The position numbers and the translations under genes were made by a program. DNA of 18,956 nucleotides. Origin: Ignisphaera sp. (GTDB lineage: Archaea > Thermoproteota > Thermoprotei_A > Sulfolobales > Ignisphaeraceae). The stretch covers positions 78,833-97,788 of the forward strand of contig JAWAHS010000004.1 of the NCBI GenBank assembly GCA_038889075.1, read 5' to 3'. The notes beneath the pieces were generated by a model, which was given only the letters and a program-made list of their open reading frames with translations, made no database searches and was not told where the DNA came from. Shown here one piece after another: positions 2,540 to 4,243 of this stretch. Within the stretch, counting starts at the first letter, position 1. Every line of letters starts with the position of its first letter.

Positions 2540-2702
2540 GCTGTATACCTCAGTATCTATCAAGTTTCAGCGGGGTATTTTATGCTGCGCTACTCAAAAT
2601 AGCTATCTATTTAAATTCTAGTAGCTCAAGATACATACATAAAGTTGACTGTGGTATGGATGGCACAGATGCTAAACAGTCGTCAGGAGGTGATCTTCAG
2701 AG

Positions 2703-3140
2703 CTATCGTTGGTTGGAAAACACTTCTTCGTTATAGGGAGCTGGAAATCTGTGTTGTAGAAGGTGGCTGTACTGTATACACGTATACTCCATTTCTATTT
2801 TGATGACATCCTCCCTAACTCTGCTGAGATAGCGTATGGCTTCTTCTGGTTTTAATAGATGTATTTCAAATGGGTGATAGTATGGTAGATCCAACATTTT
2901 CTCGATAAGGGCCTTCACCCCCGCCCTACTCAATGCTCCATTGGGTATGTTGGGCGATACTATAACTATATCTACATCGCTGCCGCCAACATAATTGCCT
3001 CTAGCAATGCTTCCAATAACATAGACCTCTGTGTCGCGTAGTACACTTCTTGCTATAGTGGCGATTTTATCAACCCATATTCTCCACTCTCTCAACATTT
3101 CTCTACGCTTTAGTATAGATTCCATGAACAGGTTCAACAA
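2703..3140 (-). CDS. Minimal nucleotidyltransferase (MNT), antitoxin of a HEPN/MNT pair
   Basis: VYVIGSIARG...GSDVDIVIV (GS + DxD) and PFEIHL; TTG start overlaps the TGA of the upstream HEPN remnant, preceded by GGTGGTGA RBS. Confidence 0.88.
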   Translation of the reverse strand: MLNLFMESILKRREMLREWRIWVDKIATIARSVLRDTEVYVIGSIARGNYVGGSDVDIVIVSPNIPNGALSRAGVKALIEKMLDLPYYHPFEIHLLKPEEAIRYLSRVREDVIKIEMEYTCIQYSHLLQHRFPAPYNEEVFSNQR

Positions 3141-3447
3141 TCACCACCTAGAATCTTTCTAACTAAATTCACCGCCTCTTCAACAACTCTAATCATCTAC
3201 ATCGCATCCTCCTTCTCATACTCCTTTGCGGAATACCTAGCTATGAGATAGGCATCTTCGAGAGCTAGTACCGTTTCCCACCCTAGGTTTTTGTAGGTTT
3301 TTCTAGGGCGGGTTGTGCCTCAGCCCTGCGGTTCACGGTGGCTACTAGCCACTCTACGCAGGGGTCATGGGCACCGTTCGAGCCCAACGGCACGGGGCTC
3401 ACATCTAGGTGTCTCTTCTTAAGAAGCTCTACCTCCAATCTATGCAT
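3137..3447 (-). pseudogene. HEPN-domain toxin pseudogene, split by an insertion/deletion
   Basis: N-terminus MHRLEVELLKKR (3447-3412) typical of archaeal HEPN proteins; C-terminal piece VLALEDAYLIARYSAKEYEKEDAM*MIRVVEEAVNLVRKILGGDC* (3271-3137) with the LEDAYxxxRY motif, an internal TAG at 3199-3197 and a stop coupled to the MNT start. The central part is missing. Confidence 0.8.
3271..3411 (-). mobile_element. Right-end remnant of a tnpB-carrying IS607/IS605-type element (tnpB 3' tail plus omega/reRNA scaffold)
   Basis: About 60% GC (hand count 84/140) in AT-rich surroundings; encodes HLDVSPVPLGSNGAHDPCVEWLVATVNRRAEAQPALEKPTKT*, resembling from memory the C-terminal tails of archaeal TnpB proteins; nested stems 3277-3286/3303-3312, 3324-3330/3357-3363, 3338-3343/3347-3352, 3380-3385/3395-3400; ends in ...GGGAAACGG directly abutting HEPN coding sequence. 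Confidence 0.7.
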
Positions 3448-3663
3448 ACTACACATCTCATTGCATCCCCCATGCTAAAACCGTTGCATATAAGGGCTAG
3501 GTAGGTTTAAAATCTATACGTCTACATCCTTCCTATGCAAAGAATCTTCCACCAGGTTTGCAGACCATCACCTACTACATCTAAACCTAGCCTCAGATGC
3601 TATGATGTGGAAATGCACTCTTCGGAGAATGATGTATTCAGTGTGAATTGGTGTCGATCTTTC

Positions 3664-3717
3664 TAGTCAGCCTTGAAACACCTCATCATGTCTCAGAGTT
3701 CACAGCCATCATCACTT
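3664..3717 (-). ncRNA. Box C/D methylation-guide sRNA
   Basis: Minus strand: C GTGATGA (3715-3709), guide TGGCTGTGAACT, D' CTGA, C' ATGATGA, guide GGTGTTTCAAGG, D CTGA (3670-3667); canonical 12-nt spacers; intergenic. Confidence 0.9.
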
Positions 3718-3736
3718 TTTTTTTAAATCTGTACTG

Positions 3737-4243
3737 CTATAGCTGTGGCTTCTCTTTATATACTATTCTCCTTATGGCTGGAATGACTATAAGGGCTCCT
3801 GGTAGAGTCGCTGCTAGGTTTCCTGCTGTAACAAATATGAATAGTAGGTGGGGCTGTCCTACCTCAAATATATATCCCAATAGTATAATGCCTATATAGA
3901 GTCCGACTATTGCTGAATCCATTGCTGCTACTAGTGGTAATACCCACCTTCTATAGCCGAGGATTCTTCCAATGATGTAGTTGAGTATTGAGTATGTAAA
4001 TGTGCATGCCGTTCCTATTACGATATCCCATACACCAAAGGGGGAGAATATATTTGCTATGAGTGTGCCTATGGTTAGCCCTAGTACACCCTCAATCCCC
4101 ATTATATATGGTAGTGGTGAGAGCATATCAGCTACTCTAACCTGTATAGGTCCATAGCTGAGTGGGTGTAAGAGTAGAACGAGGGCTATATACATAGCAG
4201 CAATTACAATACCTCTAACGACTACTATCTTCACTCTATACAC
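3737..4243 (-). CDS. queT: QueT-family ECF S component (7-deazaguanine/preQ precursor transporter)
   Basis: IAAMYIALVLLLHPLSYGPIQVRVADML, GLTIGTLIANIFSPFGVWDIVIGT signature; 168 aa, highly hydrophobic. Confidence 0.85.
   Translation of the reverse strand: MYRVKIVVVRGIVIAAMYIALVLLLHPLSYGPIQVRVADMLSPLPYIMGIEGVLGLTIGTLIANIFSPFGVWDIVIGTACTFTYSILNYIIGRILGYRRWVLPLVAAMDSAIVGLYIGIILLGYIFEVGQPHLLFIFVTAGNLAATLPGALIVIPAIRRIVYKEKPQL

Follow-up and report, generated by a model that had tools for sequence, protein, structure and literature searches.

We analyzed a stretch of 18,956 nucleotides from the archaeon Ignisphaera sp. (GenBank assembly GCA_038889075.1, contig JAWAHS010000004.1, positions 78,833 to 97,788; hereafter the window), in which a HEPN-MNT gene pair, which we take to be a type VII toxin-antitoxin system, lies on the (-) strand with the HEPN toxin gene upstream and its MNT partner downstream (Table 1). 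The HEPN gene is broken. Residues 1-12 and about 88-132 remain, residues 13-87 are gone, and the two remnants flank a 140-nt insert that resembles the 3' end of a tnpB gene. TnpB guide RNAs (omega RNAs) are already known to overlap the 3' end of tnpB and to take their guide from the flanking DNA. An earlier reading of this DNA (the original prediction) had proposed that an insertion sequence entered the toxin gene and that a deletion then left roughly its guide-RNA scaffold behind the toxin promoter. In the labels used below, X denotes public sequencing runs, L metagenome loci, G related genomes, P proteins and C contigs of the organism's own genome.

Table 1. Features of the interrupted HEPN-MNT locus and gene-less elements elsewhere in the genome. 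Positions refer to the window unless a contig label (C) is given. ORF, open reading frame; MITE, miniature inverted-repeat transposable element.
Feature	Position	Strand	Basis
MNT nucleotidyltransferase gene, intact, same orientation as HEPN	2703..3125	-	PF01909, E 1.1e-9; ortholog in G006
HEPN 3' remnant (..VLALEDAYLIARYSAKEYEKEDAM, stop, MIRVVEEAVNLVRKILGGDC, stop; final stop 3136-3134)	3134..3270	-	sequence and alignment to G006
HEPN letters at guide position, UACUAGCUCUCGAAGAUGCC	3251..3270	-	from element boundary; guide use putative
Terminal AACGG: last scaffold letters, boundary with GG core, proposed pseudoknot 3' half	3271..3275	-	aligned copies
Insert, 140 nt: last 42 codons of IS607-type tnpB plus element right end, omega-RNA scaffold region	3272..3411	-	
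Hairpin 3 (CCCGCCCUAG / CUAGGGUGGG), A-rich loop	3277..3312	-	helix 6
Three-level nested stem (GGUGCCC.../...GGCAC, CCCUGCG/CGCAGGG, GUGGCU/AGCCAC)	3315..3374	-	helices 3-5, 6 pairs with compensatory changes
Hairpin 1 (GAGCCC / GGGCTC), 9-nt loop with CCGUU at 3390-3386	3380..3400	-	93% of cells paired, 2 pairs changed on both sides
HEPN 5' remnant, 12 codons MHRLEVELLKKR, ATG at 3447	3412..3447	-	alignment to G006
Chimeric ORF, 54 codons: HEPN 1-12 fused to TnpB tail 381-422	3283..3447	-	ORF list
Candidate promoter: two TATA-like boxes, CTTATATG at 3493-3486 and TTTTAAA at 3511-3505	3486..3511	-	read from sequence
MITE family A copies	C2:273975-274211(+), C8:3048-3279(+), C8:67187-67404(-), C2:108-326(+), C7:34703-34928(-), C2:362072-362223(+)		
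MITE family B, good copies	C15:1151-1411(+), C14:32054-32309(-), C7:70384-70641(-)		
MITE family B, decayed copies	C12:19279-19564, C2:102749-102980, C2:333662-333898		

We compared the locus with 41 related genomes. An uninterrupted HEPN ortholog, against which the original prediction had proposed to check the gene, is found in G006, where HEPN is intact (132 residues; PF05168, E 8.6e-30) and MNT stands next to it. The 5' 37 nt of the window's HEPN are 92% identical to G006, and the predicted 54-codon ORF, in which the first 12 HEPN codons run in frame into a TnpB-like tail, is indeed seen; the 3' part together with MNT is 68% identical. Similarity halts at 3412 and restarts at 3271, the two HEPN parts being spaced by ~232 nt in G006 versus 147 in the window. 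The G006 stretch ..PRTHSIRH.., which holds the catalytic R-x-H, falls in the part that the window gene has lost, and a full HEPN domain with an R-x(4-6)-H stretch is no longer encoded there. The chimeric ORF, which also opens at an upstream ATG (3283..3456, 57 aa), is a by-product of the junction.

Contigs of public sequencing runs were aligned to positions 2700-3760 of the window (1061 nt). In a 12.7-kb contig from X13, a 4.1-kb contig from X15 and a shorter one from X11, position 3271 is joined to 3412 by 225 other letters (75 codons) and not by 140. The insert thus comprises 3272-3411, and the ~140-nt extent given for it originally was right to within one base. In its flanks, the 225-letter allele differs from the window by ~2% (12 of 572 letters). 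Closely related populations thus hold two alleles, of which the chimeric one is most likely recent and strain-specific. As a protein, the 225-letter allele was not found among the eight sequences examined of 448 HEPN homologs (E <= 1e-10). An in-frame TAG is located at 3199-3197 (-) in the HEPN 3' part, at a place where G006 encodes Glu-Asp. X13 and X15, which carry the 225-letter allele, list no difference at this site, a difference table alone being no proof of identity, and HEPN may thus already have been ~21 residues shorter before the insertion. Because the family of the insert occurs in many copies in these communities, a false join induced by the repeat has to be considered. Such an assembly artefact is improbable in the extreme: both junctions lie in unique sequence with just 4 nt shared at the left, and seven runs from four studies, one of them maybe the source sample, contain a fraction of 0.77-0.93 of the words sampled from the 1061-nt stretch.

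The insert stands out by its guanine-cytosine content, which is 62% overall (0.55-0.63, compared with 0.35-0.49 in the surroundings). A protein search with the 54-aa ORF, limited to longer proteins, gave 21 candidates, 10 of which reached E <= 0.01. The peptide had been described as TnpB-tail-like, and the last 41 residues of four 422-aa TnpBs from metagenome-assembled genomes (MAGs) of Thermosphaera and Zestosphaera are 88-90% identical to it; in a translated search, its residues 13-54 are 88% identical to residues 381-422 of TnpB P0005. Scanning metagenome contigs with P0005 yielded 11 loci. L064-L067, of which L066 and L067 are one locus from two records, encode the whole 422-residue TnpB at 85-88% identity to P0005; L068 and L069 contain most of tnpB, L070 its last 210 residues at the locus edge, and L072-L074 the tail only; the right end is the same in all of them. 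The insert aligns end to end with the right ends of the tnpB-bearing copies, with identities of 92.9% (L068a), 90.1% (L065 and L070), 86.5% (L064), 84.4% (L066) and 78% (L069), and nhmmer E values of 9e-36 to 2e-19 against related copies, and of 9e-36 to 4e-20 against the right ends just named, argue that this likeness is not due to chance. In L066, a 210-aa TnpA (894-1523; HTH_17, E 5.4e-14; Resolvase, E 2.5e-26) precedes and overlaps the start of tnpB (PF07282, E 1.6e-18). Since the locus holds a serine-recombinase TnpA and a TnpB gene, the parent family is, by gene content, IS607. The similarity to tnpB 3' ends on which the original prediction depended is thus present, and full tnpB elements sharing the insert's end were found in hot-spring metagenome contigs (L064-L067), fixing the boundary.

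Parts of the insert recur more widely. The best TnpB in the compared genomes of the same family is just 45% identical to P0005, the full cognate elements coming from metagenome contigs. Among 23 matching loci examined, L028 and L032 (G008) carry the 5' module inside the tails of intact ORFs of 438 and 436 aa, respectively, and the 438-aa ORF contains a TnpB domain (PF07282, E 7e-12). The 5' hairpin module is multi-copy in many of the 41 relatives. In the organism's own genome, the 5' 50 nt and the 3' 50 nt of the insert each resemble one of two short multi-copy families, and no second full copy of the insert was found. A decayed second copy of the window-type scaffold is seen at C1:382808-382934(+) (nhmmer E 2e-4). 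Several other assignments were tried and rejected. None of the own-genome tnpB 3' ends aligns with the insert, and an apparent complementarity between loop and terminus in a C1/C9-type element failed on folding. A tRNA or tRNA fragment was considered for the T-arm-like hairpin, and ARAGORN reported 0 genes. Rfam at gathering thresholds gave 0 matches in the whole window; a permissive search of 3100-3700 gave nine weak ones, and the two that touch the insert (RNase_MRP, 9.3 bits; a long noncoding RNA with 3-nt overlap) were taken as chance.

We next considered the boundary between the insert and the 3' part of HEPN. In the window and nine loci, which provide seven distinct flanks besides that of the window, the right ends all read ...GGGAAACGG, and the flanks diverge thereafter. 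The HEPN 3' part directly follows this end. Because ...GGGAAACGG is common to all aligned copies with flanks diverging behind it, the junction is a true transposon right-end junction, and since the 3' end of the insert is the transposon boundary, the adjoining HEPN letters are in guide position. The original prediction is borne out on these points: the insert corresponds to a tnpB 3' tail with the right end of a TnpB-bearing insertion sequence, its end abuts the HEPN 3' part and coincides with the element boundary in every aligned copy, and HEPN letters occupy the place of the guide. Position 3271 is common to the window and the uninterrupted allele, and the element boundary falls on the 3271/3272 joint. 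A GG core dinucleotide is present at both junctions; the right end is ...ACGG in 13 of the 15 alignment rows, and the left-end side is ...AGGG in four of five distinct copies and AGGA in one, the exact crossover point not being fixable from sequence.

In the predicted fold of the insert, a 5' hairpin is followed by a three-level nested stem and a 3' hairpin, and the minimum free energy is -59.2 kcal/mol (z = -5.5; 0/200 shuffles as good). The opposite strand reaches z = -3.2. The hairpin 1 module encodes ...SPVPLGS...HDP of the TnpB tail in full elements, and the hairpin 3 part is similar (~85%) to the ends of the genome's own MITE family A. RNAalifold assigned 30 pairs to 15 aligned copies, 11 of them with compensatory changes. 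All 30 can form in the window, compared with 26-30 in the tnpB-attached copies and 26-27 in the gene-less copies of G034, G028 and G011. When the fold of the window was taken together with a proposed pseudoknot (43 pairs), 89.7% of cells were paired, versus 35-40% with the partners slid; 10 of the 43 pairs have changed on both sides, and 0/500 shuffles reach the covariation score. As the aligned copies are related and the 43-pair structure was derived from one of them, this covariation counts as support and not as a probability. The nested stems had been described as intact, with a covariation analysis and a check for decay against active copies proposed; the stems are not decayed. These findings together support the notion that the insert region encodes a TnpB guide RNA scaffold.

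The two pentamers of the proposed pseudoknot, CCGUU in the loop of hairpin 1 and the terminal AACGG, are present and complementary, as had been noted before. All five pairs are possible in 12 of the 15 rows, with no compensatory change. The pentamers are intact in the window, in all six tnpB-attached copies and in L072, L073, L074, L068b and L020, and the pairing is broken in G034 (3/5, 4/5) and G011 (2/5). At position 3376, where most copies have a G, the window and L068a have a C, through which CCGUU could also pair locally in a competing hairpin.

A strong fold ahead of an intact MNT gene in the same orientation could act in cis only, the structured 140 nt serving as a leader that alters how stable the MNT message is or how well it is translated, or the 54-aa peptide could have a role of its own. 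We regard this as highly improbable, because the arrangement is not conserved, being one allele of one lineage, the peptide matches no Pfam family, and the tail is more alike between copies as DNA than as protein (78% versus ~55%, window versus G028).

The origin of the allele is reflected in its left junction, which in the window reads GAGA/CACCTAGATG, the slash marking the junction (junction letters GAGACACCTAGATG). At this place the tnpB-bearing copies read ..CTAAAACTAGATG, ..CTGAAGCTAGATG, ..CTGAAGCTAAATG or ..CTAAAACTGGATG, with the corresponding variants AAAACTAG, GAAGCTAG, GAAGCTAA and AAAACTGG. L072 contains a gene-less MITE of 220 bp (L072:89-308), in which the element left end with GGTTTATAAAGG is fused to the scaffold and which reads ..TTCGAGACACTTAGATG (GAGACACTTAGATG) here. 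P0001 reads ..GASRHLDVSPVPLG (..SRHLDVSP) and thus has the same junction as L072. GAGACAC(C/T)TAG is common to the window, the L072 MITE and P0001 and is not in the full elements; the uninterrupted HEPN of G006 reads AAGAAGAGA/TCATC. Because the left-junction letters match L072 and P0001 and not the full elements, the parent is more likely to have been a 220-bp MITE than a full element, and the deletion would therefore have removed ~300 bp and not ~2 kb. The sequence of events originally envisaged, insertion followed by deletion, stands insofar as the element lost its left part and HEPN its center, and has to be revised as to the parent and the size of the deletion.

We infer that insertion of the MITE came first and a microhomology deletion second. 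A 220-bp MITE of the IS607 family, whose full parent element encodes a serine-recombinase TnpA and a 422-aa TnpB, would have inserted into HEPN in the orientation of the gene, with its right end at ...G/TACTAGCTC. A deletion of ~300 bp would then have occurred at 4 nt of microhomology, between GAGA in HEPN codons 11-12 and GAGA inside the MITE, taking ~75 nt of the MITE left end with its TATA-like box and 225 nt of HEPN with the catalytic stretch. Left over would be a complete right-end module, which is the guide-RNA scaffold in full elements, followed by HEPN letters at the guide position, and the only lasting effect would be an unrestorable toxin gene adjoining an intact MNT. Alternatively, a full-length IS607 element (~2 kb) may have inserted, with a single deletion that began at HEPN codon 13, ended in the tnpB tail and left the scaffold. 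The tail frame is indeed the TnpB frame, and full-length elements with the same end exist. We nevertheless find this unlikely, since the four letters inside the left junction (ACAC) have the form seen in the MITE (L072, P0001), whereas tnpB-bearing copies have AAAA or GAAG, and since a 300-bp deletion is simpler than one of >2 kb.

Both parent ends, the lack of a gene and the presence of several copies characterize the L072 element and families A and B as MITEs. The window copy has lost its left end and is thus a MITE fragment, not a MITE. P0001 (119 aa) is a fragment of the fumarylacetoacetate-hydrolase family that reads in frame through a window-type MITE (..GASRHLDVSPVPLGSKGAHDP..), which makes it the second example of a gene struck by such an element. 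Directly upstream of the 220-bp MITE, L072:1-88 holds another right-end-like terminus (..CCTTAGGATGGGAAATAG), which suggests tandem or nested insertions at such ends.

We investigated whether the remnant could work in its own genome, the assembly of which is 99.6% complete in 25 contigs. The original prediction had made its case conditional on tnpB in the genome, and there are four full-length tnpB genes plus fragments. None has a tail like the insert, and no cognate TnpB was found in the assembly, the best own match being 30% identical to the 422-aa P0005; a G008-type TnpB (436-438 aa) was likewise not found (best 31%). A search with the L066 TnpA found no intact IS607 TnpA, returning six partial matches, none of which spans the 210 residues and one of which is split by another element. 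Thus, neither the nuclease that would load the RNA nor the recombinase that would move the element is encoded in the assembly. Because the TATA-like box of the MITE itself has been deleted, transcription, if any, would necessarily start from the HEPN promoter. Contigs of an RNA run (X20) map to MNT, 3200-3272 and portions of the insert (88-99% likeness); 3420-3760 is not covered, no contig bridges a junction, and the one that reaches 3272 continues unlike the window. These contigs derive from a mixed community and show neither expression nor silence of the window allele.

Lacking a TnpB of the matching kind that could load its RNA and an IS607 TnpA that could mobilize it, the remnant is most likely idle in this genome, and its structure would still be intact because it is young. 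We consider it very likely that the remnant is a recent, structurally intact but idle scar of an IS607-type MITE. Several observations weigh against this interpretation. The scaffold shows no decay (30/30 pairs, 5/5 pseudoknot pairs, 92.9% identity to L068a), as expected of a functional RNA, although recency explains this equally well. The insert is located 36 nt past the start codon of an operon with an intact MNT gene, and an RNA with scaffold and guide is probably made from this operon. With the assembly in 25 contigs, a cognate element may be unassembled. Relatives of the scaffold are abundant in the same type of community, with a summed depth of 1000-2000 versus 13.6 for the flanks in X13, and since they are so abundant, a cognate TnpB could arrive by transfer. 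Finally, the order in which the MITE came first depends on 4-7 shared letters at one junction.

Alternatively, the remnant may serve as an orphan guide in trans. The HEPN promoter would drive scaffold and HEPN guide, and a cognate IS607 TnpB, unassembled or transferred, would cut uninterrupted HEPN, either converting HEPN alleles to toxin-null or excluding incoming HEPN-bearing DNA. Nothing is missing from the scaffold between the hairpin of the proposed pseudoknot and the last base, and the placing of the pentamers (-5..-1, -120..-116) is comparable to that in the ISDra2 pseudoknot. The 20-nt guide stretch has no listed difference in X13, X15 and X11, the runs that carry the 225-letter allele. 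Gene-less elements that rely on TnpB in trans are discussed in print, and cognate TnpBs are present in MAGs of related hot-spring genera. We still judge such a use quite unlikely, given that a 99.6%-complete assembly contains no cognate TnpB and that neither junction is spanned by an RNA contig. Beyond 3271 the 225-letter allele no longer matches the window, so that one G is shared; the GG or GGG found beside the left ends of four of five distinct copies is not evident next to the target, and the proper adjacent motif may therefore be absent. The guide 20-mer has 0 exact matches in a viral contig collection, and elsewhere in the own genome nothing beyond 13-15-nt chance words was found. A more specific version, in which TnpB with the promoter-captured guide RNA cuts uninterrupted HEPN in sibling or incoming DNA and recombination spreads the toxin-null allele, is very unlikely; if true, it would represent a natural one-guide allele drive, or an anti-addiction immunity, made from transposon debris. 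The single-spacer system or regulator put forward in the original prediction is thus not supported, for lack of a cognate TnpB, an intact TnpA, the MITE promoter part, a junction-bridging RNA contig and a viral match.

The genome contains two gene-less families of ~250 bp that consist of a TATA-like box and a GC-rich scaffold and end in GGGA(C)AAACGG. Family A (~235 bp) has the left end GGGTTTGGTAGCTGTTTC.. and the end ..GGGACGGGAAACGG, and its last 45 nt are ~85% like the insert. It occupies ~6 distinct places, and nhmmer matches near the end of C8 and at the start and end of C2 are maybe contig-edge copies of one element. At C5:39796-41109, the halves of one split family A copy flank 1.1 kb and interrupt an IS607-type tnpA. 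The opposite strand there carries an open frame of 386 codons (C5:39926-41086) that contains RuvC-like motifs, lacks a zinc ribbon and has no Pfam match; its tail ..ERPTKT resembles ..GKPTKT of the 422-aa TnpBs. Family B (~260 bp) has three good and three decayed copies; the ..LDGSPVPLGSTATHEP.. encoded by its scaffold also occurs in the tails of the 436-438-aa G008 TnpBs.

Two features of the locus lie outside the insert. The MNT ORF extends ~30 codons past the end of the G006 ortholog (145 versus 115 aa; window 2703-2790 (-)), and in the other runs this ORF contains 3 additional nt after position 2784. Upstream of HEPN, a candidate C/D box small RNA is found at 3665-3716 (-), with C box GTGATGA, D' CTGA, C' ATGATGA and D CTGA. 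It remains under Rfam thresholds (best 19.4 bits), and 3661-3718 is 77-94% identical (mostly 87-94%) in 13 genomes of the genus and family.

The locus offers a clean, datable example of a toxin gene most likely inactivated by an IS607-type MITE, half of which was subsequently lost, with both alleles still found in public hot-spring data. Hot-spring archaea of this group hold several families of gene-less IS607 derivatives with little beyond a TATA-like box and a scaffold, and these sit in a genome without a matching nuclease or intact recombinase. This raises the question whether orphan scaffolds are dead weight or a ready-made guide reservoir for any arriving TnpB. Proof of its use would make the remnant the first such guide RNA under a host promoter. 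In the literature searched, at the level of titles and abstract openings, we found neither an orphan scaffold behind a toxin promoter nor IS607-type MITEs in these archaea.

We compared the remnant with known systems. A PF05168 HEPN RNase-type toxin adjoining a PF01909 MNT is the arrangement of HEPN-MNT toxin-antitoxin pairs, from which the window differs in that its HEPN is dead, lacking residues 13-87, and MNT alone is intact. A close parallel in element type is the IS607 Clostridium botulinum IStron, whose core is GG, whose adjacent motif is TGGG and whose scaffold ends in UCGG (Zedaveinyte et al., bioRxiv 10.1101/2023.11.20.567912). Its omega RNA, or right-end element RNA (reRNA), likewise overlaps the tnpB 3' end and reaches the right end, and a serine-recombinase TnpA and a GG core are shared. 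Here, however, the scaffold ends in ...ACGG and the left-end side reads (A)GGG; the element comes from archaea (hot-spring Thermoprotei) and lacks a group I intron, and the window copy lacks tnpA, tnpB and the left end. The insert does not match RAGATH-18 in Rfam.

The omega RNA of ISDra2 has a 116-nt scaffold, with a pseudoknot between -5..-3 and -105..-103 (Nakagawa et al., PMC10097598). The scaffold described here is similar in size (~130-140 nt), has several stems and contains, in the region of its 5' hairpin, a sequence complementary to the letters that precede the guide; the geometry of the proposed pseudoknot (-120..-116 with -5..-1) resembles that of ISDra2. In contrast to ISDra2, with which there is no sequence similarity, the pseudoknot here is predicted from sequence and is conserved only, with no covariation. 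In a haloarchaeon, sense-overlapping noncoding RNAs (ncRNAs) at the 3' end of IS1341-type tnpB have been shown to be expressed (Gomes-Filho et al., PMC4615843). They too are RNA modules at an archaeal tnpB 3' end, in another archaeal group and with another tnpB type, whereas the module here is known from sequence. Gene-less IS200/IS605 derivatives, which resemble palindrome-associated transposable elements (PATE-like), encode omega RNAs for use in trans by TnpB (Meers et al., PMC10055086). Like these, the L072 element and families A and B keep both ends and the scaffold and have no protein gene. They differ in being of the IS607 type and not of the Y1-transposase type, and the window copy differs further in that it is a truncated half-MITE behind a host promoter.

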